Source: Deltaproteobacteria bacterium
GTDB taxonomy: Bacteria > Bdellovibrionota_B > Oligoflexia > Oligoflexales > CAIYRB01
Reading direction: 5' to 3'
Length of the DNA: 64,000 nt
Assembly: GCA_016874735.1 (NCBI GenBank)
Contig: VGTI01000008.1
Coordinates: forward strand, 18,636 to 82,635
Below are positions 32,080 to 64,000 of the stretch, piece after piece. Each line of letters starts with the position of its first letter. Within the stretch, counting starts at the first letter, position 1. Position numbers and translations under genes: made by a program. The notes below the pieces were generated by a model. That model saw nothing but the letters and a program-made list of their open reading frames with translations, did no database searches and was not told the origin of the DNA.

Positions 32080-32218
32080 GGGAATCCTTCCCGCGCTATG
32101 AACCGGAACTTAGACGGTCAGATCGGTCAACTTCAATGGGTAGTTGGAGGTAATCACTTTCATTATCCCGCTTGCCGCAACAAATGAAAAGACTCAAAAC
32201 TAAACTGATGCATTCTTA

Positions 32219-36400: not shown

Positions 36401-36549
36401 TTGAGATTAACTTGAGCTGTCTTTTGACTAATGGCCAAGACCGTACCCGACAGCGCCAAGAATAGCGGCGCAACTGCCGTAATGCGGATCAATTTCGTTA
36501 GCCATAATCTTTTCAAGATCACTTCCTCACAATTTAATCGTCGCAACAT
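33400..36549 (-). CDS. large TPR-repeat protein (GltD/AgmU-like)
   Basis: 1049 aa with an N-terminal hydrophobic anchor and many TPR-like repeats (e.g. AMSNYKNALRF, ALAYWKQTV, GDAYYALGDYYF). Confidence 0.6.
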   Translation of the reverse strand: MLRRLNCEEVILKRLWLTKLIRITAVAPLFLALSGTVLAISQKTAQVNLNDVKQEKIKKKGPEKAASSKLSANEAFMVATESKLIGEINKATNYLASQSERMPKKSQTRLDMKERLVNLRLEAAVYYTNQEMRKYEKAWDAWDRGGRKGREPKLDESESKTQWQTLAKDAKNLLAEFPTAKNADVTMFNMGLAYNVLNKGTEAAKIFSQLITKFPNSQKAGDAYYALGDYYFEDIQYSNAMSNYKNALRFKQAKSYAWSLFKLGWCSYNLGQHKQALAYWKQTVTEANRNGKAGIALHDEALRDMVYAFAELREIEPAIAYYKANGGDKFIGKFLLLLSDTFSDQGQFAEAIKVLRRYQQVAPLAEDVPDTQKSIIALFYELGRFNEVWVELDRYPRLFGPNSPWGDKHKDDKKLFDETQQTIKDQIVYYSKLTHKNAQKDDNKRGYAEALRGYALFLKNYPKAREVAEIKYNMADIYYFTKQYREAGKLYLDICLMGNDRALIVDPKTNKSTNIHKQAAEYMLESYYRNFEPELKVLVKQKADFSKPARPITENGRNFVKACEYYTKAYPNDKKNVKSCDTYLTEIFYRSNDRKMAEKYLVMLAKKYPNEREGQEAVENLIPLYAKDEKALAAVITELRKIPAYQKGKIGEKLDNLDRGLAVDAIKSDKNACSRAKKAEDLFKKRPTAKDSDALIYNAALDWEKCNKATDAIRDYSIVLEKFPKSEGAKPALLRLAVLHQNRFELGSAAKLFHDFARRYPKEKETTTALAYTCEVEAALGAEAAVPSCLEFAQADQASAKIIFFRMLRTAFSAGEEGRVAQMAKILDGKFKLTPEERIQAYAVVMNTRGSASEAAAKEIITTFQKSGGNVSGEALRAVGGLVFRRVNNVIGPFQSLRLKGGTVDALAGSIQQKVGALAKIQAAYDQVLATKDAYWGVAAFYQLGYARELIARDLENPPEIKGAPHADVVKQLSGDAQAARKEALAFYNKALEAVGKYLVYNEWAAKALSGVARIQGKKISFDDLIVRPDFVGAEVPENVAQEVKGKGD

Positions 36550-36565
36550 CTAAACAAATCTATTG

Positions 36566-38122: not shown

Positions 38123-38146
38123 TATCCGTTCTGATGACCATACACT

Positions 38147-38896
38147 TTAGAAAAAAGTCGACATCCCGAACTGCAACGTCACGTTTTGTTGAAAATCTGT
38201 TCCAGTCGATACACCCGGATTACAGGATCCATCGGCAACCTGATAAACAAAGAAATTGTCGCGAACGTCCCATCGAATCGCAGTATCTTCGCTAAGGAAA
38301 TATTTCTGGCCAAACCCGATAATCGCACCTGGGTAACTCTTAGTGGTGGGAGCCGGCTTCTCCACATCTGGCGCCACACACTGAGCGTAATCATAGGCGA
38401 TACCTGTCATGCCGGCTTCGAATGTCAGGAAAGAATCGAAATAAACCACATCCCCGGTCGGTAGCTGAGTCTTGCCGTAAATCGGTGTCCATAAGAATCC
38501 TCCCGCTGCCATGTAGGAGGTGCGTAGAATCTGGGTTGTGATCTGAAAGTCGCGCTTCAGGAGGGTCTTGTCTTGCTTATCGAAGGACAGTCCGAAGGCG
38601 CCGTTGATCTCAAAGGCCAAAGATTCGCTGAAATGATAATCAAGCAGGCCCGAGGCCATGAGCGAATAGATGAACGATTGGTTCAAAATGAAGACACCTT
38701 GACCGCCAAGCTCGAGGCGATTGGATTTGGTCATGAAGCGTGGGCGAATGACCCTAATTTCGTACCCTGAGAAGCGATCATCGTTTGCCATAGCATCGGG
38801 TGTAAAAGCACCAAAAGCCATAACAGAGGCTAAGAGCAGACCGCGCGCCAGGACGCCAGCATTAGATTTTTTTTGTGTCAGTTGGGTCAAAGCCAA
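38147..38896 (-). CDS. small outer-membrane beta-barrel protein (GltA/GltB/GltK-type)
   Basis: Signal peptide ...PDAMA. Alternating beta-strand pattern. C-terminal FGMSTFF. Size and RxELGGQG...YHFSESLAFE pattern resemble the myxobacterial OM barrel family. Confidence 0.6.
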   Translation of the reverse strand: MALTQLTQKKSNAGVLARGLLLASVMAFGAFTPDAMANDDRFSGYEIRVIRPRFMTKSNRLELGGQGVFILNQSFIYSLMASGLLDYHFSESLAFEINGAFGLSFDKQDKTLLKRDFQITTQILRTSYMAAGGFLWTPIYGKTQLPTGDVVYFDSFLTFEAGMTGIAYDYAQCVAPDVEKPAPTTKSYPGAIIGFGQKYFLSEDTAIRWDVRDNFFVYQVADGSCNPGVSTGTDFQQNVTLQFGMSTFF

Positions 38897-38918
38897 TCCA
38901 CTCCGCTGCTCGCAGCCT

Positions 38919-39419
38919 TTAGTCGCCCTGTCTTGCTACCATTAACTTAAATGTGATGTATTCTGCCTGCTGCGCTGCAAGCATGATGCGCTTCATGAGT
39001 TTAAAGTTATGCCCTTGGTCCATCTCCATCGTCAGAGTGGAAAGCCTAGCCTTATCAGCCTCCGATAGGCGGCCACCGATGACCTTTTTAGTGGCCTCGG
39101 CTAATTTCTGTAGCTCCTGAAAGACCGGGAAAACAGCACCCTGACTTCGGGCCGCTTCCTCAACATCGCCAGCCACAATCGACGCCACTTTTTTGTCATT
39201 AATGATGACGTCGGTTTTAGTAACTTTGATGGTTGGCATCTCATCGAGCGTGGAAACAGTCATCGACTCAGGCAATTCAACGCCGTTATTAACGTCGTAA
39301 CTCACAGGATCAGTCGAATAACTCATCAGCAGGAAGGTGATGAGAATACTGAAAATATCCAACATCGGCATCAGGTTTAAACTGAGCGACTCGCCAGAAT
39401 CTGTGGAAACTCCTGCCAT
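38919..39419 (-). CDS. ExbD/TolR-like motor subunit (AglQ/AglS-like)
   Basis: LNLMPMLDIFSILITFLLMS TM helix with the conserved Asp. Confidence 0.75.
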   Translation of the reverse strand: MAGVSTDSGESLSLNLMPMLDIFSILITFLLMSYSTDPVSYDVNNGVELPESMTVSTLDEMPTIKVTKTDVIINDKKVASIVAGDVEEAARSQGAVFPVFQELQKLAEATKKVIGGRLSEADKARLSTLTMEMDQGHNFKLMKRIMLAAQQAEYITFKLMVARQGD

Positions 39420-39457
39420 GCCTTCACCCCGTAGCGATCTGATGCTTTAGATAAAAA

Positions 39458-40003
39458 CTATCTGAGCATGACGCTTGCCATGACCACCTTTGGATAGAGA
39501 AATTCTGCTGCTAATCTTTTATCGAGCTCTGAAGCCCCTGCAGGAACGATGACCGGATCGTTCGGTGCCCGCACTTTGACGGCATCAAGAACCATCGCGA
39601 TATCTTTCCAGACTACGTCATCCTCAGTAAAAAACTGAACCTTATCGGTTTCAGGATTGCTGCGACGCAATTCCAGAAGAAACTTGTGGAGATTCGCCAT
39701 ATCGGCCTTATCCACTTTAAATTCACGTTTTTGCTCATTGATCGGCGGCTTGTTATAAGCAGCTGTCACTTCGATTTTGGCCTTTTCCATATCGACCTTA
39801 ATCTCAAGTGATCGGCTTTCCTCTTTCTTTTCCGGGGGGGCTGACGTGAGAAAAGGTATCTGAACCTCGAGGATACCAATCGACAGGAAGACTGCTGACA
39901 TCAGCAGGAAGGTGTTGAGCAGCGAGAATACATCGATGAACGGCATGATGTTCAATTCGATGTCGCGATACTTAACCTTCCGTACTTTTTTCTTTCTAGA
40001 CAT
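39458..40003 (-). CDS. ExbD/TolR-like motor subunit (AglQ/AglS-like)
   Basis: LNIMPFIDVFSLLNTFLLMS TM helix with the conserved Asp. Basic N-terminus. Confidence 0.75.
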   Translation of the reverse strand: MSRKKKVRKVKYRDIELNIMPFIDVFSLLNTFLLMSAVFLSIGILEVQIPFLTSAPPEKKEESRSLEIKVDMEKAKIEVTAAYNKPPINEQKREFKVDKADMANLHKFLLELRRSNPETDKVQFFTEDDVVWKDIAMVLDAVKVRAPNDPVIVPAGASELDKRLAAEFLYPKVVMASVMLR

Positions 40004-40056
40004 AGACGTCCTTTAGCAACTTCCTTTGAGCGAATGACACCATCCGGAGCAATCCG

Positions 40057-40734
40057 TTATTCAGCGCTAACAGACGATGAACTACCGCCACGCTTAATCT
40101 TCATTTTGCGCGTGTAGAGCAGGTCCACGAGGCGAGCTGAATTACGGTTAATGTCATCAACGATGCCTGACTGCTTCAGCATAAGTACACCGTAGGCCAG
40201 AAGACACATAAGAGCGGTACCTAGACCAAACGACGTTGCGGTCAAGGCTTCGGAGATACCTGCTGCTAGAGCCGTTTGTTTCGCTGATCCAGTTAATTTT
40301 GCAGCGGCACCGAACGACTTCATCAGACCGAAGAGCGTTCCAAGCAGTCCTAGCAGCGTCGCAACGTTGGCCGTCGTACCAAGGAACGGCAATCTTTCGG
40401 TTAATTTCGGCATCGCTGTGAGCGTTGCCGTGTTCAGCGCGTTTTCGATTTCTTCAGTTGAGTCATTGGCGCGCTTCAAGCCCTCAGCCATGACAAAGGG
40501 AAGGAGTTTAGGACGAGCTTTTTTGCAGAGTCGGATGGCGTTTTCGATTGAGTTATTCATCACCATCTTCTGCACGGCAGCCATAAAGCCGGAACTGTTA
40601 GCCAAGTCGTACTCTAGCCAGTAGCGGTAGGCACGCTCAATGATGAGGCCGATTGAGATGAAGGCCACGAGAGTAATGGAGGACATGATTTCCATGCCGC
40701 CCTGCTCGAACTTTTCAGCTATAAAATCCAACAT
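40057..40734 (-). CDS. MotA/TolQ/ExbB-like proton channel (AglR-like)
   Basis: Three TM helices and the LLGLLGTLFGLMKSF...SEALTATSFGLGTALMCL signature. AGGGAGG RBS upstream of ATG 40734. Confidence 0.8.
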   Translation of the reverse strand: MLDFIAEKFEQGGMEIMSSITLVAFISIGLIIERAYRYWLEYDLANSSGFMAAVQKMVMNNSIENAIRLCKKARPKLLPFVMAEGLKRANDSTEEIENALNTATLTAMPKLTERLPFLGTTANVATLLGLLGTLFGLMKSFGAAAKLTGSAKQTALAAGISEALTATSFGLGTALMCLLAYGVLMLKQSGIVDDINRNSARLVDLLYTRKMKIKRGGSSSSVSAE

Positions 40735-51515: not shown

Positions 51516-53273
51516 ATGCTATCTAAGCTCATGCTTAAGACATTGCTCCTTTCTCAGCAGCTTTTTGCAGGTGAGCCTGCACTATCTCCTGAGAGACTAA
51601 AGCTGGAGCTGCAAGAGGCCAATTACTTCTCGAACGATCCTGCGACGTTTGTTACCGTTTGTGACGGAGCGGAATGCCAATCTGCTGCCGAGGGTTACAC
51701 GCGTATCGATCGTCAAGAGCAAGTGACCTTAGACAACCTAGTCACGGTCGGCAGCAATTCGAAATACATCACTGCAGTCATGATTTTGAAGTTAGTGGAT
51801 CAAGGCTTAGTCAAGCTCAGCGACAAGCTGACCGATTTCTTCCCCGAATATTCCCAATGGGGCGCGGTTACGGTTCGTGATTTGCTGAATCAGTCGTCTG
51901 GGATTCCCGAGTATGTCTTCAGCAAAGAGGGCGTAAACCGCATCCTCCGCAGTGCTTTCAACTGGCACTCACGCAAGTGGAAGCCACGGGACATTGTGCA
52001 CGCCGTCGCTAAGATGCCCTCGCTATTCCCAGTGGGCACCAAGGTCGAGTACAACAATACCAACTACGTGCTTCTCGGCATGATCGCTGAAAAAGTCAGC
52101 GGTATGCCACTGGACGAACTACTAAGGACGCAGCTGTTTGAACCACTGGGCATGCAGTCTACTTATCTTTCCCTGCCCCAAGACCTGAAGAAACTGCGCG
52201 TGTCAGGATACATGGTGGCGAACCTTCCGTTTCCCGGTTGGTTCATCAATGCATTTTCGCGCAAGATTAAAAAAATCGGTCCCTATCTCGATACCACCAA
52301 TTTATTCGACAGCTCTTTTGTTTGGGCAGCCGGTGGCATCGTCTCTAATACCAGCGATCTGGCACGTTTGACTTACGCCCTGTTTCACGGAGATATCTTA
52401 AGTCCAGAAACACTCGCTGCTATGAAGACGACCCGCCTAGGCACAGTGCTTGGTATGCCACTACAGTATGGCCTTGGGTTGATGAAAACTCCGTCCAGCA
52501 TCGGCGATGGGTACGGTCACGGCGGCCTGACACCCGGCTACCAAACAATCACCAATTTTTATCCTGAAAAAAATCTGACCATCAGCATGTCCCGCAATAT
52601 GGGACCCTCACAACTTTACTCTGTGTACTATGACTTCCTGTCACGCCTGTATACACCTGACGATAACAAGCCGTTCGTAGAACTCGACGCGGTCAATAAG
52701 AACAATCTGGGAGACAACGGCGTCCACGTGCGTCTCAAGGGACATATCGCCGAGGACGGCGCCGCCAACATCATGATCCGTGATGCTTACGGTTATGCGG
52801 AATTGAAAGAGCACGGCAAATCATCACTGCCGTACTCTAGTTTCGATGCTGTAGCGACTAGGTCCACTGGTGGTCGTGAACTGGAGCTGAGGTTGAAGGG
52901 CAGTCTCTCCTTTCTCGATAGACAGGCTGAGGAGGCAGTTAAGCTACCGTTCCTTACGGTCGTGATCAATCAAGACGATCTACCCAGCGGTACCGCTCCC
53001 CTCATGGAGACAACGACCACGACGAGTGTTTTCGCCTTTAAGGGCACGGCGACGGTAATGCCTAACGGGGCTGAAGAGGTGTGTGTGACCGATGTCATCG
53101 ACGAAACAGTGACGACGGCTCTGCAAATCGAAGGTGCTGGAGACCAGGGATTTGTAACGCGCGATAGCATCAAACTGGTCGGTAACATCCCCCTGCGCAA
53201 GGTGGGTAAAGACGAGATCGTATCAGAATTGGAGAGGCGCCACTTGCGGCTCTGCTCTAACGCATCACGCTAG
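51516..53273 (+). CDS. beta-lactamase-fold serine hydrolase (class C/DD-peptidase family) with a ~200-aa C-terminal extension
   Basis: SxxK (GSNSKYIT), YxN (EYNNTNY), HGG (GYGHGG) motifs in the canonical order. Confidence 0.75.
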   Translation: MLSKLMLKTLLLSQQLFAGEPALSPERLKLELQEANYFSNDPATFVTVCDGAECQSAAEGYTRIDRQEQVTLDNLVTVGSNSKYITAVMILKLVDQGLVKLSDKLTDFFPEYSQWGAVTVRDLLNQSSGIPEYVFSKEGVNRILRSAFNWHSRKWKPRDIVHAVAKMPSLFPVGTKVEYNNTNYVLLGMIAEKVSGMPLDELLRTQLFEPLGMQSTYLSLPQDLKKLRVSGYMVANLPFPGWFINAFSRKIKKIGPYLDTTNLFDSSFVWAAGGIVSNTSDLARLTYALFHGDILSPETLAAMKTTRLGTVLGMPLQYGLGLMKTPSSIGDGYGHGGLTPGYQTITNFYPEKNLTISMSRNMGPSQLYSVYYDFLSRLYTPDDNKPFVELDAVNKNNLGDNGVHVRLKGHIAEDGAANIMIRDAYGYAELKEHGKSSLPYSSFDAVATRSTGGRELELRLKGSLSFLDRQAEEAVKLPFLTVVINQDDLPSGTAPLMETTTTTSVFAFKGTATVMPNGAEEVCVTDVIDETVTTALQIEGAGDQGFVTRDSIKLVGNIPLRKVGKDEIVSELERRHLRLCSNASR

Positions 53274-54030
53274 CAAGAGACTTCATCATCAAACGACTGG
53301 GCACCATCTTGCCGGCGATCGTGCCCAGTTTATTGACACCTCCGGTGATGCACACTTCGCGACGGTCAAACATCGCTGCAATTCCAAGTCGGGCAACGGC
53401 ATCAGCAGACATGAAGAGCTTCTTTAAATCTTCTGTCGTCACCGACGCTTTGTTATCGAAAAAGTTTGTTGCCGTTGGTCCGGGACACACCGCCGTCGAG
53501 CTTACACCGTGGGTACTGTACTCAAAGTTCAACGTTTTAGAAAAACTGACGACTAGACTCTTGGTCCCGGCATAAAGCCCATAGAAAGGCAGAGGCTGAA
53601 AGGCCGCTGTCGATGCCACTTGCATGATATAACCGTGCTTACGTTCAACCATGCGCTGACCGTAGAGGTAGGACAGCTGCACCAGAGCCTCGACATTCAG
53701 CCGCAGCATTTTAATTTGCGCGGCTAAATCAGTTTCGAGAAAGCGACCATGGCAGCCAATGCCCGCATTATTGACCAGAACCTCAGGAACAATGCCTTGC
53801 TCATCGGTGAATCTCGCTAGCTGCTCAGGTGCAGCCTCGAGGCTCAAATCAAGCGGCATCACCTGGACCTCAATGCCGGACTTTTCCCAGGCGTTCTTTA
53901 AGGAACTCAGCGCCGTTTCCGAACGCGCCACCAAGACCAAATTGTAGCTATGTTGTTCAGCAAGCTGCTGCGCAATGGCGCGTCCGATTCCTGCGGTTGC
54001 CCCGGTGACGATAGCCCACTTCTTGGTCAT
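53257..54030 (-). CDS. short-chain dehydrogenase/reductase (SDR)
   Basis: TGATAGIGRA cofactor motif, NNAG, YAGTK catalytic motif. ATG 54030 is preceded by GGAG; the ORF opens at 54063. Confidence 0.85.
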   Translation of the reverse strand: MTKKWAIVTGATAGIGRAIAQQLAEQHSYNLVLVARSETALSSLKNAWEKSGIEVQVMPLDLSLEAAPEQLARFTDEQGIVPEVLVNNAGIGCHGRFLETDLAAQIKMLRLNVEALVQLSYLYGQRMVERKHGYIMQVASTAAFQPLPFYGLYAGTKSLVVSFSKTLNFEYSTHGVSSTAVCPGPTATNFFDNKASVTTEDLKKLFMSADAVARLGIAAMFDRREVCITGGVNKLGTIAGKMVPSRLMMKSLASVMR

Positions 54031-54218
54031 GGATGGCTCCATTAGCTGCATGTTATAACCCACCTAAAGAATACAAACCACTGTAATCCATGTAACTTTA
54101 ACATAAGATGGGACCTTTTTTAAGGCGCGTTCTCAAGTTAACCAAAGTTAAGCCGATGACAAGGTCGAGCAAAGGCAACCCCCAACCTGGACCCCCTTCG
54201 CTCAAAGCGAGTTAGTGG

Positions 54219-55373
54219 ATGGGCAGCAAAAAGAAAAATACTGGTCTGATCCTCACCGGTGGCGGCGCTCGCGGCGCCTACCAGGCCGGTGTGCTCCAAG
54301 GCATAGCCGAAATAGCCAAGGCGCGGACGCAGACACTCCCTTGCGACATTATTTCCGGTGCCAGTGCTGGAGCCCTGAATGTGGGATTTATCTCTGCTAC
54401 TGCTGATAATTTTAGTCGGGCAGCACGGCAACTTTCCGCTTTTTGGAGTACTCTTAAGGCCGAAAGCGTCTTTCGTACGGACGTCCGCTCCCTAGGCCGC
54501 ATCGGTGTCAACTGGGCAACCGACCTCACACTCGGCAATGTGCGAAAGCGCAAACAAGCGGTATCGCTTGTGGATACGACACCGCTCAAGGCCCTTATCG
54601 CCAGTCGCGTTCCGTTTAACGGTATCACCAAACATCTGAGTAGTGGGATCTTAAACGCCGTCGAAGTGTCCGCCCTCGATTACACAACCTCCGAGAATGT
54701 CTCTTTTATCATGTCGCGCCAGCCGCGCGCTGCCTGGGTGCACCCAAGGCGAAGGTCTGCATTCACGAAAATCAAAGCCGACCACCTTATAGCTTCGGCA
54801 TCCATTCCCCTACTATTTCCACCCATCGAGGTAGAATCCCGCTTTTATGGTGACGGCTGCGTGCGTAACCCCGCACCTTTAAGCCCGGCCATTCGGCTTG
54901 GAGCCCGGCGCCTGCTGATTGTTGGGGTACGTCACGGGCGCAATCACCACATCGACCGTACCGATCTCGGCGCAACCGACCGGCCAACCATCGCGCGTAT
55001 CCTAGGGGTCGTACTGAATGCCCTCGTGATGGACACGGTCGAATACGACATCGACCGCCTGACCCGCATGAATAAAATGGTGGAGAGTGTACCGCCGGAA
55101 CTACGTGAGCAGTTGCCACTGAAACAAATCGATTGCCTCGCTATACAGCCGTCGGCCGACGTGGGCGAAATTGCTGGTCAGCATTTCAAGCGGCTTCCGA
55201 CCATACTGCAGTATCTGATTGGCGGTATGGGTAACGCCGTCGAGGCTGCCGAGCTCGCTAGCTATCTCCTGTTTGAGCCAGCATTCTGCTCCTATCTTAC
55301 AGAGTTAGGACGCCAGGATGCACATAACCGTAAAGACGAGATTGAGGACTATCTGTTTGGTGGCGCGCGCTGA
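54219..55373 (+). CDS. patatin-like phospholipase
   Basis: GGGARGAYQAGV oxyanion motif, GASAGA nucleophile elbow, DGC-type Asp (YGDGCV). Confidence 0.85.
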   Translation: MGSKKKNTGLILTGGGARGAYQAGVLQGIAEIAKARTQTLPCDIISGASAGALNVGFISATADNFSRAARQLSAFWSTLKAESVFRTDVRSLGRIGVNWATDLTLGNVRKRKQAVSLVDTTPLKALIASRVPFNGITKHLSSGILNAVEVSALDYTTSENVSFIMSRQPRAAWVHPRRRSAFTKIKADHLIASASIPLLFPPIEVESRFYGDGCVRNPAPLSPAIRLGARRLLIVGVRHGRNHHIDRTDLGATDRPTIARILGVVLNALVMDTVEYDIDRLTRMNKMVESVPPELREQLPLKQIDCLAIQPSADVGEIAGQHFKRLPTILQYLIGGMGNAVEAAELASYLLFEPAFCSYLTELGRQDAHNRKDEIEDYLFGGAR

Positions 55374-55446: not shown

Positions 55447-57327
55447 ATGCACCACGACGAGGCGCGAGCCTGGCTTCGCGATGTTTATCAGGGCGACCAG
55501 GTACGCCAATTATCAGTCAGATCCGTAGTTAGCGGCATGCTTATCGGCGCCATTATGTCGATTTCCAACTTATACGTCGGGCTTAAGACAGGCTGGGGAC
55601 TAGGCGTCACCATCACGGCTTGCATCATTGCTTACGGTGTCTTCCGCGCATTGGAAGCCGTGGTGCCCCATTATCGGCGCAATCCTTTTTCCATTCTAGA
55701 AAACAACACCATGTCCAGCGCTGCCAGCGCAGCAGGTTATATCGCCTCGGCTGGCCTAACCTCCGCCTTCCCGGCGCTCTATTTGACAACTGGGCGCCTG
55801 CTGACCTGGTGGGAGATGATTGGCTGGCTACTCTCCATCTCGATTCTTGGCGTATTCATGGCGGTGCCACTTAAGCGGCAGTTGATCAACATCGACAAGC
55901 TACCCTTTCCGTCGGGGATTGCCACGGCGGAGACGCTGCGGTCTATGCACTCAGCGGGCGCAGAATCTCTGGGCAAGGCACGCTCACTCGTTTGGGGTGC
56001 CGGCATCGGTGCCATCGTCGCGTTCTGGCGCGACGGCCTCGGACAATTTGGCGCTTGGCTCGCCACCAAACTTGATCGTCCCTCACTCAAGGAGACGCTC
56101 GAAAACGCTGCGTTCCCCGAGCATGTGCCGCTCTTTCCTGGCGGCGGTACTCTCCTCGAACGCTACTCGATCGGCCTTGAGGGCTCGTTGATTATGATTG
56201 CGGCAGGAGCCATCATGGGAATCCGCGTCGGCGTCTCCCTGCTGCTTGGATCGGCACTGTGCTACTGCGTCATTGCTCCCATGCTACTCGCCGACAACAT
56301 CGTCGAGCCTGGCTACAAGGGCATAGTCTCGTGGACTCTGTGGCCATCGACAGCGTTGATGGTGACCTCCAGTATGGTATCTTTGGGCCTTAAATGGCGC
56401 ACAATCCTGCGCGCACTCTCGGGACTGAAGGCAGCTTTTAACAAAGACTCGGGTCCGGTCGATCCCTTGGCACACATCGAAGTGCCGACGTCCTGGTTTG
56501 TGTGGGGCACCCTGATTGCAGGAGGTGCCTCCGTCTATCTGGGCCATGCGTGGTTTGGTATCGCGTGGTGGATGGGTATTCTAGCCGTTGTGATGACCTT
56601 TTTTCTAGCTATCGTGGCGGCGCGTGCAACTGGTGAGACGGATGTTACGCCGATTGGCGCGATGGGTAAAATCACCCAGTTATCCTACGGCATCATCGCT
56701 CCCTCGAACATGAGCACCAACCTCATGACGGCATCGATCACTGCGGGAGCGTCATCACACGCTGCCGACCTGCTGACCGATCTCAAATCAGGCTATTTGC
56801 TGGGTGCGAACCCGCGGCAGCAAACGATCGCTCAGCTCTTTGGTGTCGTTGCTGGTAGCTTACTGGCAGTGCCGGTCTATACCATCGTCGTTAAGCCCGA
56901 GCTGCTGGGTACCGCGGCTATGCCGGCCCCATCCGCAAAAGTTTGGGCTGGTGTTGCCGAAATGCTGGCTAAGGGCGTTAGCTCTCTGCCGGCTGGGGCG
57001 CTGGCCGCCATGATCGTTGGCGCTTTGCTTGGCGTGTTCCTGGCTCTTGGCGAAGCCTACCTGCCAGAGCGTTACCGCAAGTGGCTACCTTCGGCAACTG
57101 GACTAGGTATCGCTGGCGTCATCCCTGCCTTTAACTGCCTTTCGATGTTTATCGGCAGCTTCCTAGCCTGGCGTCTGATGAAGAAGAAACCAGAGACAGC
57201 GGATCGTTACTTAGTCACCGTATCGTCTGGTCTCATCGCAGGCGAATCGCTTATGGGTGTCGCCATCATTCTGGCAGCTCAGGGTGGCGGCATGATCCAA
57301 GAGATCATGAAGGCAATCAACGGCTGA
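55447..57327 (+). CDS. OPT-family oligopeptide transporter
   Basis: 626 aa with about 16 TM. Blocks LPFPSGIATAETL and RATGETDVTPIGAMGK are typical of bacterial OPT proteins. Confidence 0.8.
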   Translation: MHHDEARAWLRDVYQGDQVRQLSVRSVVSGMLIGAIMSISNLYVGLKTGWGLGVTITACIIAYGVFRALEAVVPHYRRNPFSILENNTMSSAASAAGYIASAGLTSAFPALYLTTGRLLTWWEMIGWLLSISILGVFMAVPLKRQLINIDKLPFPSGIATAETLRSMHSAGAESLGKARSLVWGAGIGAIVAFWRDGLGQFGAWLATKLDRPSLKETLENAAFPEHVPLFPGGGTLLERYSIGLEGSLIMIAAGAIMGIRVGVSLLLGSALCYCVIAPMLLADNIVEPGYKGIVSWTLWPSTALMVTSSMVSLGLKWRTILRALSGLKAAFNKDSGPVDPLAHIEVPTSWFVWGTLIAGGASVYLGHAWFGIAWWMGILAVVMTFFLAIVAARATGETDVTPIGAMGKITQLSYGIIAPSNMSTNLMTASITAGASSHAADLLTDLKSGYLLGANPRQQTIAQLFGVVAGSLLAVPVYTIVVKPELLGTAAMPAPSAKVWAGVAEMLAKGVSSLPAGALAAMIVGALLGVFLALGEAYLPERYRKWLPSATGLGIAGVIPAFNCLSMFIGSFLAWRLMKKKPETADRYLVTVSSGLIAGESLMGVAIILAAQGGGMIQEIMKAING

Positions 57328-57352
57328 GTCACTGCACCAGTGCTGGCTAACT

Positions 57353-58372
57353 TCAGCCGGCACGACGTGTGCAGGTGAGATTTTTACTGTTCCACTGCCC
57401 ACCGCGCGGACAGGCACAGCTCTGGCGTTTTTGATTCCAGGTGCCGCGGTTCCACTCACTCTCGCATACATTGCGACTGGGTAGCGCGTGGGGATCGAGA
57501 CAGCTCTGATTGAGCCACATCCTGCCCTTGGGACACTGACATCTTTTCTGCACACCGTCCCAACTGCCACCGTGAAATTCACTTTCGCAAATTTTTGACG
57601 AACTCAAACGCGACATTAAAGCACAAGACTCGTGCCACCAAATGCGACCCGATGGGCAGTTGCACCGATTTTTACTATCGTCCCATTTGCCACTGTTGAG
57701 ACCGTTCTCGCAGGTGAATTTGAGCGTGTTCCCTGCAACACTCTTGGCTGCCACACATCCGCCGCGCTCGGGTATAAAAGTTTCGCCGCCACTGCAGCGA
57801 CAGTCACCTTTGCTCCAGCGTCCGGGACGCACCGCGCTCGTGCACGCCGCATCAGAGACCTGATTGCGTATGGCCTGGCATTTAGCGCCTACCAAGACTT
57901 TATGTTCGGGGCACAAGCAGTAGGATTCACCACCCATCCACTTTGCGTGAGCTTTCTCACAGTTAGTTTTAAGCGCGGCCAATTGATGCGGCGTGAGTGA
58001 CTGGACTTGCGCATCAGCTTTGTCCGTTTTTGCTATGCCACTCCTGCGCCCATCTTTGGCCTTATTTTCAGGCAACAGTGTAGCTGGCGTGACTTCACGC
58101 AGTGTTGATACCTGCGGCGCGAGTGTCGCTGGTTGGGCCTCGGTGAGTTGCGCTTTGTCCTTGCTACCAGCCTCACTGTCGCAGCGACTACCCGTCCACT
58201 TGGAGCCGCCGGCACATTCGCACTCATTGGTGGTCGCACTAAGAGTTGCACCTGCGGCGACGCAAACTTTACTCTTCTCATTCACATCCGCATCTTTACC
58301 ACTCGGATCGTTATGACAAGCAAAGGCAACAAACAGCGCAAACATGGGGGCAAAACGGCGCATGTAGCCCAT
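57353..58372 (-). CDS. Cys-rich repeat lipoprotein (six C-x8-9-W-x5-6-C-x-C-x10-11-C modules)
   Basis: Lipobox VAFAC. Modules include TCENGLNSGKWDDSKNRCNCPSGRIWWHESC, ICESEFHGGSWDGVQKRCQCPKGRMWLNQSC and VCESEWNRGTWNQKRQSCACPRGGQWNSKNLTC. Confidence 0.6.
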   Translation of the reverse strand: MGYMRRFAPMFALFVAFACHNDPSGKDADVNEKSKVCVAAGATLSATTNECECAGGSKWTGSRCDSEAGSKDKAQLTEAQPATLAPQVSTLREVTPATLLPENKAKDGRRSGIAKTDKADAQVQSLTPHQLAALKTNCEKAHAKWMGGESYCLCPEHKVLVGAKCQAIRNQVSDAACTSAVRPGRWSKGDCRCSGGETFIPERGGCVAAKSVAGNTLKFTCENGLNSGKWDDSKNRCNCPSGRIWWHESCALMSRLSSSKICESEFHGGSWDGVQKRCQCPKGRMWLNQSCLDPHALPSRNVCESEWNRGTWNQKRQSCACPRGGQWNSKNLTCTRRAG

Positions 58373-58405
58373 CGGAAAGAATCCTCCACTAAACCAATTT
58401 ATAAT

Positions 58406-58846
58406 CTAATTATACAGCAGTTTAGATACGGCGTCCCATGGCAGGAGCACGCAAGTCATGCGCGTTGGATATCTTTGCAAATCAAAAATAGCCCGCAAAT
58501 CGCCTTGAAATTTCGTCGCTTGCTCAGGATCCATGCTCTGATAGGACGTCTGAAAGAGCGCAACCAGCTTCTGCGCATCGACTTTGGTCTTACCCGCGAG
58601 GCTACTGACCATGATGGAGGCACTGGACTTACAGAGGAGACAGGAGCGGCAGTGAAAACCGAGCTGCAGCTTGCCCCCTGCGTCCCAGCGCCCCATGACA
58701 GTGACCTCGTCGCCACAGAGAGGATTGGTGACTGTGCGTGATGCTGCGCCATCCAGAGACTCGGTATACCCAACCGGTTGGCGCGCATGGGCAAGAACAC
58801 GGTCCTGATAAACTGCGGACGCATTTTTCGAGTTAGGAGGGTTCAC
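58406..58846 (-). CDS. sufU: SufU/NifU-N-terminal-type Fe-S scaffold-like protein
   Basis: Colinear by eye with B. subtilis SufU. Matching blocks: YQDRVLAHARQP, NPLCGD, CLLCKSSAS, YPTRMTCVLLPW. The GTG start overlaps the upstream gene's stop (GTGA). Confidence 0.7.
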   Translation of the reverse strand: MNPPNSKNASAVYQDRVLAHARQPVGYTESLDGAASRTVTNPLCGDEVTVMGRWDAGGKLQLGFHCRSCLLCKSSASIMVSSLAGKTKVDAQKLVALFQTSYQSMDPEQATKFQGDLRAIFDLQRYPTRMTCVLLPWDAVSKLLYN

Positions 58847-59835
58847 GCCTCAACTCTTGCCGTCAGTCTATTATAGGCATTGACTAACAGCTTGAAGCCT
58901 TGGTCATCACCACCCTGGAGATCGGGATGCAGCTTTTTAGCCATGGCGATATAGCGCTGCCGCAGATCACCTGGAGCAGGTAATGCAGCGAACCCCATGA
59001 AGCGCAATGCTTCAAGATCAGCCGGTGCGAGCAAAGGCGCGGCGGTAGACGCCTGTGAACGTCGCCGCCTAAACTCGTCACGAATATCCTGCGCCCCGCG
59101 CTGCGAGCGCTGGCGGCGCACGTCTTGCTCCATGGCCTCGCGCCTCTGGACTAACCAAAGACGTAGACTGCACTCGCGCAGCTGCTGATAGCAATTGCTG
59201 AGTCGCTCACGTGCCGCTATCAGCTCACCGCGGACGTTGGTGAGAAAGGAACATACCGAGCGACATTGTAGTTCCGTCGGTAAGCCGTCGGGTAACTCAT
59301 CAAGCCGCAAACCGACGAACGGCACCGGTAACTTACAAATCTGCTCTAAACGCGCGTTGTGTCTAAGTAAGGTTGTCCATAGGCAAGGTTGATCCTCAGC
59401 GAATGGTAAGCTGCTCGCGTCCCGCATCTGCCAGGATTTGACTAAAGCTTGTTCAACCTGCGAGACAAGTGCTCCGTCGTAGGGAGCAAACACCGGTTCA
59501 CTAAGCAAGGCCGCCTGAAAGGGACCCGTGGTCGTCGCAGCTGGCGCCCTGAACCACGCACTAGGACGCTCCACCGTCAGCATTGGGAGTCTAAATCTCA
59601 GTGTATTTTCGAGTGCACGGATCCTTTGACTGAGATCAGTCACTGCATCAACTTGCAGAGTCTCGCCGCTAAGTGACTTGCGTATCGTATCGACAAACAT
59701 ACGGCGACTATCGAGCTCGGCAATGACAGCATCCAAGCATGAAGCGACTGGGCCGTCATGGACGATAGCCGTCAGAAACCAGTCGTTGACTAGCCGATCG
59801 GCGGATTCACTTTTGGACTCAGAGGTCTTGGCCAT
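58843..59835 (-). CDS. protein with a C-terminal J domain (DnaJ-like co-chaperone), N-terminal ~260 aa unknown
   Basis: C-terminal LRQRYIAMAKKLHPDLQGGDDQGFKLLVNAYNRL with an HPD tripeptide. Confidence 0.6.
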   Translation of the reverse strand: MAKTSESKSESADRLVNDWFLTAIVHDGPVASCLDAVIAELDSRRMFVDTIRKSLSGETLQVDAVTDLSQRIRALENTLRFRLPMLTVERPSAWFRAPAATTTGPFQAALLSEPVFAPYDGALVSQVEQALVKSWQMRDASSLPFAEDQPCLWTTLLRHNARLEQICKLPVPFVGLRLDELPDGLPTELQCRSVCSFLTNVRGELIAARERLSNCYQQLRECSLRLWLVQRREAMEQDVRRQRSQRGAQDIRDEFRRRRSQASTAAPLLAPADLEALRFMGFAALPAPGDLRQRYIAMAKKLHPDLQGGDDQGFKLLVNAYNRLTARVEA

Positions 59836-59854
59836 AGGCGGGCTTTAACTAAAC

Positions 59855-60406
59855 TTAATCTTTTTTTGGTTCTTTGTTGTAGCTGCGCTCTAGTTGCTCG
59901 GATAAACGATTGAGCTCATGAGCAACCTCGGAAAAAGCGTCACCTTTACGCAAATAAGTCCGCGAGTTGAATCGCCCCTCGCGCAGAGCTCTGAGATGAC
60001 GTTTAAACGCAATCGTCGGCCCCACCAACTTGTGCGTATACAGAATCGACAGCGTCACAGTCGATACGATATACAAAAAGAACGACCCGTACACCCAAAT
60101 CTGTGTCCCTCGCCAATAGTCCATGAATAGCTCTCTGACTTCGTCCTCTGCGTCCGTCAGGAGTACCACTGAGTTCACCAGGCCGGCAAAGTTGTAGTAC
60201 ACAATCCACGCTAGTGCCGCGGCAAAAAGCAGCGACAAGATGATGGAATAAAGGCCAATCTTAATTTGCTGCAAGGGCTGCAGGACAAAGTTACGAACCC
60301 TGCGCTTAGCCTTGCCCCCAGGTGTCATCTCTGACAGCGGCTGGCTGAGAGGCTGGGATAACGGCTGCGGCTCTCTTTGCCCCAGATTAGGTTGTTGATT
60401 GGTCAC
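59855..60406 (-). CDS. two-TM protein with a HAMP domain and no output domain
   Basis: Two hydrophobic helices, then GPTIAFKRHLRALREGRF...GDAFSEVAHELNRLSEQLE (HAMP-like). N-terminal PLSQPLSQPLS micro-repeat. Confidence 0.5.
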   Translation of the reverse strand: MTNQQPNLGQREPQPLSQPLSQPLSEMTPGGKAKRRVRNFVLQPLQQIKIGLYSIILSLLFAAALAWIVYYNFAGLVNSVVLLTDAEDEVRELFMDYWRGTQIWVYGSFFLYIVSTVTLSILYTHKLVGPTIAFKRHLRALREGRFNSRTYLRKGDAFSEVAHELNRLSEQLERSYNKEPKKD

Positions 60407-60459
60407 CGCCTTGCCCCCCTTATGAAGTGCCTGCCTCTGCAGTAGCTCAGTAATTATAA

Positions 60460-62211
60460 CTATTTTACGTCGTAAGTATAAACCAACTCGCCCACCATAT
60501 TATCCGGAACAGGAAACTGCATACTGGAGAGCGCTAGATAGACACATTCCGCTAACTTCGGATCGTTTGCCGAGCCGCCCGTGTGCTTAAGCTTGGCCAT
60601 AGTCCCTGATTGTTTAGACAGAAGAAAGGTAAAGCTCAAAGTACCTCGCAAATTATCATTGAAATCGAGTCGATCCGTGTAGCACCGACGCACCGACGCA
60701 TCGTTGGCGTTAAGGATCGCGGCAATAGATTTGGCATGGTAGTTGTGACGCATGAGGTCTAGCTTATAAAACATGGAAATCTGACGCGTAAACGTGATGC
60801 TGCGGCGCAATTCGTTCGTCGTGGAGTTGTCAGATTCGGCGTTATTGATCGCCTTTTTGCCGGCAAAAACCTCTTGCACGAGTCCAGTCTTACCATCGAT
60901 CACGGCTGCCACCGAGCTATCCTTGCGATCTTTGCCCTGCTCTTTGAAGGGATTGGCAATGGGCTCAAAGGTAAGTGCTAGTCCGTCCGCACCTTGGGGC
61001 CTAACAATCCATCTTCCTAGGTTTGAGAGGCACTGCTTTTTCACGGAGTAGCGCTGTTGATCGGCGTCGCCCATCCAGGTTCTCTTAGCCCCAGTGCCAT
61101 CGACGAGCTCAATCTTATCGAGGCGGTATTTGCCCGTCGCCGCGATCCAAATCTGGCCAGCAACGGATGTTGGCTGACGACTCGGATCTAAGCTAACCAT
61201 GACCGGATTGTTGTGCAAAAGGTCGGTCATATAGACCTGGACTTCGCTGGTAAAACCACCGCGAAAGTTTTGGAGGCTCAGGCTGATAAAAAACGCCCCC
61301 CGACTCTTTTCGAAGTACTCACCGTGCCATTCATTAAGACGTAAACCTGCCAGCTGGCCAGATGCAGATACGTCCTGCCGCGCGCCGGCGCCACTCGGGG
61401 CTCCCTTACCATCGGTGGCAGAGGTCGCGCCAAAGAGTGCTTTTTTGCCAGCAAAGATCGCCTGCACCGCTCCGGAGGTACCATCAATGACGGCGGCTAC
61501 ACTGTTGTCCTCGCGACTCCGCCCCAGTTCCTTGAAGGTGTTGGGAGTGGACTCAAAAGTCACCGCAAGGCCATTGGCACCCTGGGGCGTAAAGGTCCAC
61601 CGTCCTAGGTTAGAAAGGCAGTAGCTCTTGACGGCAAACTTGAAGCTATCGTCACCACCGCTCCAGCTACGTTTAATACCGCTACCGTCGATCACTTCAA
61701 TGCGCTTAATCGCGTACTTACCTGTTGCGGCAATGAACATCTGTCCCGGTGCGGCTGCACTCAGGCGACTCGGATCCAGACGCAGAAGATGCGTCTCTCT
61801 CTGCTGGATGTCGGTGACGATGACGCGGACCTCCGGGATCCGGCCTTTGCCACCGGCTAGTTGCTGCAGGGACAGACCAACAAAAAGGCCGCCGTGTTTT
61901 TTAGCAAAGCGCTCGCCACGCCACTCACGTGCCTCGGTTTCATCCTGACCAGGCGCCGTCCATGATGCCGGAGCTACAGGCGCCGGAGCATTTACCGGCT
62001 TGGGTGCGACTGCTGGGGCCTGTGCCTGAGGCACTGCCGTTGCACCTTTGCCCCTTGGACGCCCCGCCCATGTCTTAGTGCTCACACCCGTCTTGGTCGC
62101 CTTGGCCTGGGACTGGGCCTTGGCAGCGGCAACCGCAACAAAATCACCAGAGGCTAAGCCACCTGCGCTCAGCAGTATTGATAGCGATAGCAGCCGTGAC
62201 AACGTGAGCAA
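60460..62211 (-). CDS. secreted protein: Ala/Pro linker, two tandem ~160-aa modules, AgmX/PglI-type C-terminal domain
   Basis: Signal peptide. Duplicated modules aa 96-258 and 294-454. C-terminal VRRCYTDRL...GTLSFTFLL...AECVYLALSSMQFPVP...LVYTYDVK parallels the tail of the FHA-TonB-like protein. Confidence 0.65.
   Translation of the reverse strand: MLTLSRLLSLSILLSAGGLASGDFVAVAAAKAQSQAKATKTGVSTKTWAGRPRGKGATAVPQAQAPAVAPKPVNAPAPVAPASWTAPGQDETEAREWRGERFAKKHGGLFVGLSLQQLAGGKGRIPEVRVIVTDIQQRETHLLRLDPSRLSAAAPGQMFIAATGKYAIKRIEVIDGSGIKRSWSGGDDSFKFAVKSYCLSNLGRWTFTPQGANGLAVTFESTPNTFKELGRSREDNSVAAVIDGTSGAVQAIFAGKKALFGATSATDGKGAPSGAGARQDVSASGQLAGLRLNEWHGEYFEKSRGAFFISLSLQNFRGGFTSEVQVYMTDLLHNNPVMVSLDPSRQPTSVAGQIWIAATGKYRLDKIELVDGTGAKRTWMGDADQQRYSVKKQCLSNLGRWIVRPQGADGLALTFEPIANPFKEQGKDRKDSSVAAVIDGKTGLVQEVFAGKKAINNAESDNSTTNELRRSITFTRQISMFYKLDLMRHNYHAKSIAAILNANDASVRRCYTDRLDFNDNLRGTLSFTFLLSKQSGTMAKLKHTGGSANDPKLAECVYLALSSMQFPVPDNMVGELVYTYDVK
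60850..61926 (-). repeat. intragenic tandem duplication (units 61438..61926 and 60850..61332)
   Basis: The protein-level repeat EW(R/H)GE.F.K..G.F...SLQ...EV.V..TD...LDPSR...GQ..IAATGKY....IE..DG.G.KR.W.G......VK..CLSNLGRW...PQGA.GLA.TFE...N.FKE.G....D.SVAAVIDG..G.VQ..FAGKKA occurs twice. Confidence 0.85.
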
Positions 62212-62325
62212 GGTCGGGTGGTTCCATGGTTGAATGGGACTGGATGTGAGGATGGATCATTTCATTCTACCCCATCTCCCCCAACTTACCGCACTGTCTG
62301 GCCTCCGGTCTCAAGCACAGGGGCG

Positions 62326-62353
62326 TTGCCTTTTGGCCAAGTCACGCTAGAAT
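62326..62353 (+). promoter_or_regulatory. candidate sigma70-type promoter for the P5C dehydrogenase gene
   Basis: TTGCCT-N16-TAGAAT, 34 nt upstream of ATG 62387. Confidence 0.35.
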
Positions 62354-62386
62354 GCGCCCAGGTCTTAACTGCTTGCGAGGATGAAC

Positions 62387-64000
62387 ATGGCCAACGGGCT
62401 TTTCACAGTTCCCCCCCCAGTCAACGAACCGGTTCTCAATTATGCCCCTGGTAGTCCAGAGCGTGCCGCGCTCAAGACCGAACTCAAGAGGCAATCGTCG
62501 GATCAGGTCGATATCCCGCTGGTCATCAAAGGCAAAGAGGTCCGCTCACAGGCCGCAGGCCAGGTCACGATGCCGCACAAGCATCAGCATGTGATCGCTA
62601 AGTTCCACAATGCGACGTCCTCGGATGTGGACGCGGCCATCAACGCAGCCGTTACCGTACAAAAAGAGTGGTCACGCTTAGCTTGGCAAGACCGAGCGGC
62701 CGTATTTCTTAAAGCTGCCGATCTCTTGAGTGGTAAATACCGGCAGGTCATGAATGCCGCAACCATGCTCGGCCAGAGCAAGACTTGTTATCAGGCTGAA
62801 ATTGACGCTGCCTGTGAGCTCGCAGATTTCTGGCGCTTCAACGTGCATTTCATGACGGAACTCTACCGTGATCAGCCAATTTCGCCAGCCGGTGTGTGGA
62901 ACCGCACAGTGGGGCGTGGGCTTGAGGGCTTTGTCTTTGCTGTTAGCCCCTTCAACTTCACGTCGATTGCGCTCAACTTGCCAACGGCCCCAGCCCTCAT
63001 GGGCTGCGGCGTGGTGTGGAAGCCAGCGGCCACCGGACTTGCTGGCGCCTGGGTTGGGATGCAGATACTGCGTGAGGCCGGGCTACCAGACGGCGTCGTC
63101 AACATGATTAGCGGAGATCCCGTCGCTATTAGTGCACAGGCGCTTGCCAATCAGCACTTAGCTGGCGTTCATTTCACGGGATCCACAGCGGTGTTCAATA
63201 GCATGTGGCAGACCGTCGGCCAGAACATCAACAACTACCGCACCTATCCGCGCCTGGTAGGCGAGACTGGCGGCAAGGACTTTGTCTTTGCCCATCCGTC
63301 GGCCGACGCTCAGGCCTTGGTCACCGCGCTCGTGCGCGGCGCCTTTGAGTATCAGGGGCAAAAATGCAGTGCGGCGTCGCGCGCTTACGTGCCACGCAGT
63401 CTCTGGGCCAAAGTTAAGGACGACTTGGTGAGCCAGGTCAGCAGTCTCAAGATGGGAGATCCTGCCGACTTCACGAATTTCCTAGCCGCAGTGATCGATA
63501 GCCGTGCCTTTGCGCGGCTCAAAGGCGCCGTCGATTACGCTAAGCAGTCGACTGCAGCGAAGATCCTCGTTGGTGGAGAGACAGACGACTCTGTTGGCTA
63601 CTTCATCAAGCCGACCGTCGTTGTGACGGAAGATCCCAAATTCCGTACCATGAGCGAGGAGCTCTTTGGTCCGGTGCTGACGATTTACGTCTACGACGAC
63701 CAGCAATTGGACGAGACGCTGAAACTCGCCGACGAGACCTCTCCCTATGCTCTAACGGGTGCCATCTTTGCCCAAGATCGCCAGGCGATTGTCAAACTGA
63801 CGACGGCACTAGAGCAGACTGCAGGTAACTTCTACATCAATGATAAACCTACGGGTGCCGTCGTTGGGCAGCAGCCATTTGGTGGGGCCCGCGCCTCCGG
63901 CACTAATGATAAAGCTGGCAGCAAACTTAACCTGGTGCGCTGGATGAGTCAGCGTACGATCAAGGAAACGTTCGTTCCACCCACGCAATATGCATATCCC
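62387..64000 (+). CDS. pruA: L-glutamate gamma-semialdehyde (1-pyrroline-5-carboxylate) dehydrogenase, 3' end just beyond the window
   Basis: I translated this frame by hand: it is open for 538 codons with no stop to base 64000. ALDH motifs FNFTSIA, VGETGGKDF, EYQGQKCSAASR (catalytic Cys), EELFGPV. ALDH4-type ends NEPVLNYAPGSPER...RWMSQRTIKETFVPP. GAGG lies 6 nt upstream. Absent from the supplied ORF track. Confidence 0.9.
   Translation, partial: MANGLFTVPPPVNEPVLNYAPGSPERAALKTELKRQSSDQVDIPLVIKGKEVRSQAAGQVTMPHKHQHVIAKFHNATSSDVDAAINAAVTVQKEWSRLAWQDRAAVFLKAADLLSGKYRQVMNAATMLGQSKTCYQAEIDAACELADFWRFNVHFMTELYRDQPISPAGVWNRTVGRGLEGFVFAVSPFNFTSIALNLPTAPALMGCGVVWKPAATGLAGAWVGMQILREAGLPDGVVNMISGDPVAISAQALANQHLAGVHFTGSTAVFNSMWQTVGQNINNYRTYPRLVGETGGKDFVFAHPSADAQALVTALVRGAFEYQGQKCSAASRAYVPRSLWAKVKDDLVSQVSSLKMGDPADFTNFLAAVIDSRAFARLKGAVDYAKQSTAAKILVGGETDDSVGYFIKPTVVVTEDPKFRTMSEELFGPVLTIYVYDDQQLDETLKLADETSPYALTGAIFAQDRQAIVKLTTALEQTAGNFYINDKPTGAVVGQQPFGGARASGTNDKAGSKLNLVRWMSQRTIKETFVPPTQYAYP

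Follow-up and report, generated by a model that had tools for sequence, protein, structure and literature searches.

Genes for a HAMP-like membrane protein and a J-domain protein form the conserved core of a five-gene cluster in uncultured Oligoflexia

Do five closely spaced genes in an uncultured bacterium of the class Oligoflexia encode the parts of one multi-component system, or do they contain a smaller conserved unit? The question was raised by a 64,000-nucleotide stretch of contig VGTI01000008.1 (assembly GCA_016874735.1), which was analyzed as a whole and is called the window throughout. Its list of open reading frames (ORFs) includes a cluster of five, all on the minus strand and together spanning 57353-62211, which we name A to E from upstream to downstream:

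60460-62211, minus strand: gene A, 583 amino acids (aa), protein with an AgmX/PglI-type C-terminal domain
59855-60406, minus strand: gene B, 183 aa, HAMP-like membrane protein
58843-59835, minus strand: gene C, 330 aa, protein with a C-terminal J-domain
58406-58846, minus strand: gene D, 146 aa, SufU-like protein
57353-58372, minus strand: gene E, 339 aa, protein with Cys-rich repeats

A and B are separated by 53 nucleotides (nt), B and C by 19 nt and D and E by 33 nt, whereas C and D overlap by 4 nt. We recovered the same coordinates and spacings as an earlier reading of this DNA (the original prediction), whose domain calls, namely an AgmX/PglI tail in A, a transmembrane (TM)-HAMP-like B, a C-terminal J-domain in C, a SufU-like D and Cys-rich repeats in E, also proved broadly right. 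All five ORFs are real genes, since they have homologs in other genomes at 35-90% protein identity. The original prediction went on to put the five forward as the window's best candidate for an undescribed multi-component system. What we find to be conserved is smaller, namely the pair formed by B and C, with or without A.

We assembled 24 C-encoding loci for which DNA is available, the window included, from a protein collection, from GTDB representative genomes (14 loci), from the remote members found by phmmer with the N-terminal domain of C as query, and from homologs of B, and gene content was established by tblastn and jackhmmer with the window proteins. All 24 come from uncultured Oligoflexia (Bdellovibrionota). 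The relatives among GTDB species representatives are metagenome-assembled genomes (MAGs) labeled Oligoflexales, Pseudobacteriovorax or 'Pseudomonadota', and Pseudobacteriovorax is itself placed in Bdellovibrionota, class Oligoflexia. In 23 of the 24 loci the gene immediately upstream of C is B, the sole exception being locus L025, and this adjacency persists while the identity of C falls from 100% to 26%. The two genes are -20 to 53 nt apart, several pairs having 4-nt overlaps, and the genes that flank the pair vary among loci. A is found directly upstream of B in 15 loci and is absent from 9. D directly follows C in six (the window, L001, L003, L004, L005 and L021) and E follows D in five, the contig of L003 ending before the expected position of E. 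Gene sizes on two JGI contigs that come without DNA, and so lie outside the 24, agree with this picture. The complete A-B-C-D-E order of the window is shared by L001, L004, L005 and L021, in which C is 45-63% identical to its window counterpart; L003 carries A to D up to its contig end, and with it included the identity of C ranges from 45 to 79%. Co-occurrence of the five families in other genomes was the test that the original prediction set for itself, and the outcome is mixed: all five occur together in those four loci, but with D in 6, E in 5 and A missing from 9 of the 24 loci the five genes are not conserved as a unit, and the conserved unit is the B-C pair. On a neighbor-joining tree of C, the D-E loci comprise the window's clade plus the deeper branch of L001, a pattern that a single gain with a single loss, or two separate gains, could explain. 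These distributions separate the cluster into B-C as its old core, A as a partner that is frequent and periplasmic, and D-E as an extension specific to one clade.

C is a J-domain protein of the Hsp40/DnaJ superfamily, as identified by profile, by an invariant HPD motif and by predicted fold. It falls into two parts:

59041-59835, minus strand: N-terminal domain of C, residues 1-265, all-helical, with a final helix of about 70 residues
58843-59040, minus strand: linker, J-domain (residues ~268-330, HPD at 303-305) and stop codon of C, with the 4-nt overlap with the start of D

Taken alone, C of the window scores 18.1 bits against Pfam DnaJ, under the 27.8-bit cut-off, but all 21 C-family members tested match this profile (best E 1.5e-7). 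H303, P304 and D305 are invariant in the 21 sequences, and the HPD is kept in remote members of 22-31% identity. A profile of the family retrieves DnaJ J-domains from the PDB, down to E 2.5e-7. The AlphaFold2 model of C has a predicted local distance difference test score (pLDDT) of 86.4 overall and of ~90 or higher over residues 271-329, and Foldseek places this J-domain with those of Sis1, DnaJ (5nro_B, DnaK-bound) and Tim14 at probabilities of 0.98-1.0 and, for several, root mean square deviations of 1.2-2.7 Å. The HPD motif of J-domains triggers ATP hydrolysis by DnaK/Hsp70, and it is specialized class-C J-proteins that determine the site and the substrate of Hsp70 action; the few that are understood in bacteria are DjlA, HscB and CbpA.

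The N-terminal domain of C is another matter. Foldseek against the PDB returned the J-domain matches and low-TM-score coiled-coil noise only, a profile search of PDB sequences gave nothing beyond the J-domain, and Pfam was silent over this domain in the 21 members save for three chance-level matches, each in a single member. Neither a TerB-like domain nor HSCB_C was matched by Pfam, HscB was absent from the fold-search matches, and a Kyte-Doolittle scan (19-residue window, threshold 1.6) found no hydrophobic segment in C. An exhaustive phmmer search with the N-terminal domain over 1.84 billion representatives (50% identity clusters; E <=0.001) recovered 108 representative clusters, nearly all 300-385 aa long, the length of this domain plus ~65 residues. 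The architecture is fixed, with the N-terminal domain always followed by the J-domain and alternative architectures absent from the 108 clusters. C defines a small new family of specialized class-C J-proteins, with a helical N-terminal domain that is modeled with confidence and has no match in the PDB or Pfam.

Of the five proteins B is conserved best, its identity being 57-71% in loci in which that of C is 45-63%. It consists of a basic N-terminus, a first TM helix (TM1, ~47-74), a conserved acidic loop of ~28 aa, a second TM helix (TM2, ~103-123) and a HAMP-like helical segment (124-176) that directly follows TM2 and has a Pro-containing first helix, a connector and an amphipathic second helix. 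The motif THxLVGPxxAF is invariant and DAFxExAxELNxL nearly so, and the invariant residues cluster at the TM2-HAMP junction and in the second HAMP helix. As in sensor kinases and chemoreceptors, the segment occupies the standard position after TM2, and its matches all fall below curated cut-offs: 14.8 bits against Pfam HAMP (cut-off 25), CovS-like_HAMP in 9 of 25 family members (best E 8.8e-4), a weak match to the WalK TM2-HAMP region and, when PDB sequences were searched with the family profile, a histidine kinase matched in its TM2-HAMP region at E 0.48. Unlike those sensors, the B family has no output domain: its 86 clusters at 90% identity are all 109-229 aa long and contain no fusion, and no kinase, methyl-accepting chemotaxis protein or other output domain follows the HAMP-like segment. 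A B-family protein 42% identical to that of the window stands alone at L017 7001-7489, with no C, A or pruA beside it. Its 273-kb contig belongs to a MAG labeled Planctomycetes and could be either a binning error or a member of the family outside Bdellovibrionota.

Given these features, the reading that we favor, at a probability of about 40%, sees C held or gated by B at the inner membrane, where C would recruit DnaK, with A as a periplasmic accessory and D-E as a lineage-specific extension. In this model B would dock the N-terminal domain of C, a soluble protein of the cytoplasm, through its cytoplasmic and putatively four-helix HAMP-like segment, perhaps gating it allosterically, and this would bring DnaK to the inner membrane and activate it there for the remodeling of a specific client. 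A would act as a periplasmic accessory in most lineages and could report the state of the envelope or outer membrane to the periplasmic loop of B. The cytoplasmic D and the secreted E, added in one clade, would be either a client/cargo pair or co-transcribed passengers. The cluster is thus probably not a five-part machine but a compact chaperone module linked to the membrane, with other genes as optional additions. The predicted topology fits the model: the N-terminus of B is basic and followed by two hydrophobic segments, no such segment is found in C or D, and A and E carry signal sequences. Whereas the gene order with its conservation, the identities of the domains and the invariant HPD are observed, every contact between the proteins and the part given to DnaK we infer from the logic of the domains.

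The closest precedent is DjlA, a membrane-anchored J-protein of E. coli and Caulobacter that, through DnaK, loosens the contacts between IgaA and RcsD during envelope-stress signaling, an action on Rcs signaling that needs both membrane localization and an active J-domain with an intact HPD (PMC11709261). In Caulobacter, DjlA controls an efflux pump at the post-translational level (PMC10754441). Like DjlA, C has a C-terminal J-domain with HPD, an otherwise non-canonical sequence and no client-binding domain of the DnaJ type. The inner membrane is where DjlA works (PMC11709261), and gene order suggests a comparable association of C by way of B. However, C has neither the N-terminal TM helix nor the TerB-like domain and so is not a member of the DjlA family, the fold of its N-terminal domain is unmatched, and any attachment to the membrane would have to be supplied by B, another protein.

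A bolder version, in which B and C, with A where present, form a previously undescribed kind of trans-envelope signaling output and a HAMP-only protein answers a cue from the periplasm or membrane by docking or releasing a dedicated J-protein, strikes us as unlikely. Were it true, the sensor would deliver its output as DnaK activity, local and directed at a specific client such as D, and not as phosphorylation or methylation.

Several observations count against the cooperation of B and C at the membrane. The pairing is not obligate, as C occurs without B in L025 and B without C in L017 and L018, and no B-C fusion is found among the 86 B clusters (<=229 aa) or the 108 C clusters (<=385 aa). The HAMP assignment of B lies under every curated threshold. 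The periplasmic loop of B is equally conserved in lineages without A, so that A is not needed to explain the loop. The synteny of the region also runs deep, involving ahpC and pruA and in some loci msrAB or a Glt-like cluster (see below), and part of the adjacency may be inherited gene order and not functional coupling. Finally, all of the sequences come from uncultured organisms.

The periplasmic partner, A, can be divided as follows:

61426-61929, minus strand: module 1 of A, ~residues 95-262, duplicated beta-sandwich module
60832-61338, minus strand: module 2 of A, ~residues 292-460, beta-sandwich
60463-60735, minus strand: C-terminal AgmX/PglI domain of A, residues 493-583

The Kyte-Doolittle scan finds a signal-type hydrophobic segment at the N-terminus of A and no internal TM segment, and the protein contains a low-complexity Ala/Pro linker. 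Modules 1 and 2 are 52.7% identical over 169 aa. This duplication is confined to the window's lineage (L003 1642-3363, P0137 and P0138), and all other A orthologs, at 317-347 aa, carry a single module. Orthologs of A precede B in 14 loci besides the window; this distribution is taken from the loci, a word-indexed search with A having returned 7 proteins with low-complexity words saturating the candidates. The tail matches NF033768 at 47.6 bits (cut-off 40, E 1.3e-12, residues 493-579). An AlphaFold2 model of module 2 and the tail (overall pLDDT 64.5) shows a moderate-confidence beta-sandwich (70-87) followed by an alpha/beta tail (55-83). On this tail, at that pLDDT, Foldseek found the TonB C-terminal domain (CTD) of H. 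pylori (6sly), the FusB CTD (7zc8), the TolA CTD (2x9a) and the P. aeruginosa TonB CTD (6fip), with probabilities of 0.93-1.0 but weak E values of 0.007-0.09. The sandwich drew no specific PDB match from Foldseek, only generic Ig, CBM or transthyretin-like folds, and no Pfam match was found for the module in 15 family members.

D aligns over its full length with the SufU-type IscU of S. pyogenes (1su0) and with B. subtilis SufU (1xjs, 5xt5). It retains the ligand set Cys44/Asp46/Cys69/Cys132, which in the 1su0 alignment stand as C44 and D46 in TCGD, C69 in GC and C132 in KC..L.W, together with the SufU-type spacing between the second and third Cys. The original prediction saw no obvious enzymatic output in any of the five proteins, a statement that needs a caveat for D, which keeps all four zinc/sulfur-transfer ligand positions of SufU. 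Against TIGR01994 (SufU), D scores 69.6 bits (E 2.5e-19), and because this is below the equivalog cut-off of 92.5, D is best regarded, on sequence, as a divergent paralog-like protein and not as a standard SufU. No SufS was detected in the 64-kb window by tblastn with two SufS-like proteins. D also lacks, as read from its sequence, LPPVK, the Hsp70-recognition motif of IscU (PMC6506825). The junction of C and D is an overlap or a gap on the scale of ~1 nt in every D-carrying locus for which it can be computed, L003, L004, L005 and L021 included, and this tightness suggests translational coupling.

E begins with a signal sequence that ends in a lipobox-like VAFAC, followed by 24 further Cys in six C...CxC...C repeats of ~40 aa each. 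The lipobox region reads ...F[AV]FAC in the window, L004 and L005, which is lipobox-compatible, and LARC in L001, which is not; the Cys itself is invariant. E is probably a secreted lipoprotein. It gave no family matches. Homologs of E occur only directly after D, in L001, L004, L005 and L021, and the contig of a further locus, L020, is cut at E. An alignment of E searched against JGI metagenomes gave two close relatives only, those of L021 and L020; L021 has A-B-C-D-E-OPT as in the window, and in L020 the OPT gene likewise follows E. In L005 (9472-10227) and L021 (6001-6753), the ortholog of E is 251 aa long and not ~338, owing to an internal deletion of about two Cys repeats.

The cluster is bounded on both sides by other genes:

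62381-64000, plus strand: pruA (L-glutamate gamma-semialdehyde dehydrogenase), divergent from A and truncated by the end of the window
62212-62380: divergent spacer between A and pruA, read from the sequence
55447-57327: OPT transporter gene, convergent on E, the downstream boundary

The pruA assignment is given by TIGR01236 (786 bits, cut-off 613.6). With pruA divergent upstream and the OPT gene convergent downstream, the five genes constitute a bounded co-directional block, and the promoter of the cluster presumably lies in the 62212-62380 spacer. Promoter and terminator scans of the cluster gave counts at the level of shuffled sequence, promoter-like matches in the spacer being at chance, and are therefore uninformative on operon boundaries. 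The idea of an RNA element in the leader or the gaps was rejected, Rfam giving zero matches at E <=0.1 across 57000-62600. Past the OPT gene lie a patatin-like phospholipase gene (54219-55373, plus strand) and, by the look of its sequence, a short-chain dehydrogenase gene (53257-54063, minus strand), both ordinary in appearance; ORFs of similar sizes and relative positions lie downstream of the OPT gene in L005.

A serious alternative where A, D and E are concerned, if on balance a somewhat unlikely one, is that the cluster owes its arrangement mostly to inherited gene order in a stress/redox neighborhood. Here B and C may be a functional pair, A, D and E would be unrelated, and D would be an ordinary SufU displaced from sufS. 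Much in the flanks speaks for this. pruA lies upstream of and divergent from the cluster in 20 of the 24 loci, and on this distribution is a conserved syntenic partner. An AhpC-type peroxiredoxin gene is beside pruA in 13 loci (L001, L004, L005, L011, L013, L014, L016, L018, L019, L021, L023, L024 and L025), and the ahpC-pruA block, in divergent orientation to B-C with A, msrAB or nothing between, is conserved across the order, the window itself ending inside pruA. In four loci an MsrB/MsrA fusion gene takes A's place between pruA and B (L010 6485-7429, L011 6456-7412, L013 3149-4057 and L014 3651-4565). Where D is lacking, genes of sulfur trafficking and thiol redox are found repeatedly next to B or C, in no fixed order: a SufS-family desulfurase directly after C in L025 (8017-9237), a glutaredoxin and SufS after B in L018 (7612-9965), a thioredoxin after C in L026 (7641-7955), a glutaredoxin nearby in L022 (9561-9785) and, 3.8 kb downstream of C in L015, a SufU-like fragment (12864-13001). 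A Glt-like motor cluster is a regional neighbor in four more loci. However, A-B-C remains contiguous in L026 and on the P0128 contig, both of which lack pruA and ahpC. Likewise, D-E remains joined to C in L001, where flagellar genes lie downstream and not the OPT gene of the other D-carrying loci, so that the downstream genes are wholly unlike those of the window's clade. The tight C-D junction, with the coupling that it suggests, and the score of D below the SufU equivalog cut-off also tell against chance neighbors and an ordinary SufU.

The same redox genes could be turned to another purpose. If C and D were a pair for iron-sulfur (Fe-S) chaperoning or sulfur trafficking in the manner of HscB-IscU, the N-terminal domain of C would hand D to DnaK, B would localize the pair, and E would be a periplasmic beneficiary. 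The stop codon of C overlaps the start of D, with the junction equally tight in L003, L004, L005 and L021, D keeps its four SufU ligand positions, and SufS (L025, L018) or glutaredoxin (L018, L022) lies beside B or C in lineages without D. There is also precedent in HscB/IscU/HscA for a dedicated class-C J-protein that serves a U-type scaffold (PMC6506825), and C resembles HscB as a specialized class-C J-protein, with predicted use of Hsp70, encoded next to a U-type scaffold-like protein. Nevertheless, D is not beside C in 18 of the 24 loci, yet the N-terminal domain of C stays conserved. In HscB the J-domain comes first and a three-helix bundle makes up the C-terminus. The other domain of C is unrelated to that bundle, and because its domain order is reversed and the HscB C-terminal domain is absent, C is not HscB. 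D in turn differs from IscU in being SufU-type, in its want of LPPVK and in its presence in a quarter of the loci. SufU-type proteins are not known to have a J-protein partner, none was found in the literature, and searches for a J-domain protein with HAMP, or SufU with a J-protein, returned nothing comparable. We consider the Fe-S pair quite improbable.

Equally improbable, in our estimate, is the five-part reading that goes back to the original prediction, in which all five proteins would be subunits of one undescribed trans-envelope system, each of them needed. The genes are co-directional with gaps of at most 53 nt and one 4-nt overlap, terminator-like sites are absent from the gaps (in a scan at shuffle level), the full order recurs in L001, L004, L005 and L021 despite C identities of 45-63% and differing downstream flanks, and homologs of E are found only directly after D. 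Set against this, D is missing from 18, E from 19 and A from 9 of the 24 C loci, the D-E loci are one clade and a deeper branch on the C tree, which fits a lineage-specific addition or a single loss, and models of known systems, of defense or otherwise, match none of the five proteins. The multi-component reading holds to the extent that five genes co-occur in one clade, and fails in that the constant core is B-C alone (23/24), with A-B-C in 15 of 24. An anti-phage defense system in particular was rejected, as the PADLOC models match 0 of 5 proteins.

A thematic link, through the tail of A, to a motor operon about 20 kb away was also suggested by the original prediction, and concerns a Glt/Agl-like cluster elsewhere in the window:

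29938-40734, minus strand: Glt/Agl-like gliding cluster, composed of the genes below
40057-40734, minus strand: TolQ-like
39458-40003 and 38919-39419, minus strand: two ExbD/TolR
38147-38896, minus strand: OMP_myx_plus beta-barrel
36566-38122, minus strand: GltC-like
33400-36549, minus strand: TPR protein, 1049 aa
32219-33403, minus strand: GltE/Tgl-like TPR protein
29938-32079, minus strand: GltG-like protein with FHA N-terminus and AgmX/PglI tail (103 bits)

TolQ/ExbD/ExbD(/OMP/GltC-like) genes, where OMP is the outer-membrane protein, lie 2.6-7.5 kb downstream of B-C and in the same orientation in four Oligoflexales MAGs (L011 15399-16933, L013 12004-13580, L014 13335-14195 and L016 11635-15703), against ~17 kb in the window, and no Glt-like genes were found in the flanks of the other loci. 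The proximity of B-C and the gliding cluster looks like conserved regional gene order. GltG and GltJ (AgmX, AgmV) each combine, in one polypeptide, a cytoplasmic domain (FHA or GYF), a single TM helix and a linker in the periplasm that is long and disordered (PMC11761067). A shares their AgmX/PglI C-terminal domain, in A possibly of TonB-CTD-like fold; it differs from them in being secreted and in having beta-sandwich modules, and stays far below the equivalog thresholds of GltG and GltJ. The idea that A is the missing TonB-CTD connector of the motor operon was rejected when the tail profile found the GltG-like protein inside that operon. The thematic link was not established either, as the operon has this protein of its own and the motor-near loci are without A, so that regional gene order explains the proximity as well as function does. 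That A-B-C is an accessory of the Glt-like machinery, its proteins jointly copying the GltG/GltJ layout of cytoplasmic domain, membrane span and periplasmic TonB-CTD, is the least probable of the explanations considered: the tail of A belongs to the same NF033768 family as the window's GltG-like protein, the TonB-CTD-like domains of M. xanthus GltG/GltJ are predicted to dock on periplasmic GltD/GltF (PMC11761067) and the motor genes are near in L011, L013, L014 and L016, but the Glt-like cluster already has a full-length GltG-like connector, the four loci with the nearest motor are exactly those without A, the remaining flanks have no Glt-like genes, and A reaches 34 bits against the GltG equivalog NF033760 (cut-off 650), with the tail alone covered and the FHA domain and TM helix absent.

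What the locus offers, on the ordinary reading of inherited gene order too, is a testable two- or three-gene core in place of a speculative five-part system, with its lineage-specific passengers identified. The C family is confined to an uncultured lineage, and its function is suggested by gene order. If B and C do cooperate, HAMP signal conversion would here be wired to a chaperone and not to a kinase or chemoreceptor, and the pair would provide a handle on membrane-localized DnaK function in predatory or gliding Bdellovibrionota.

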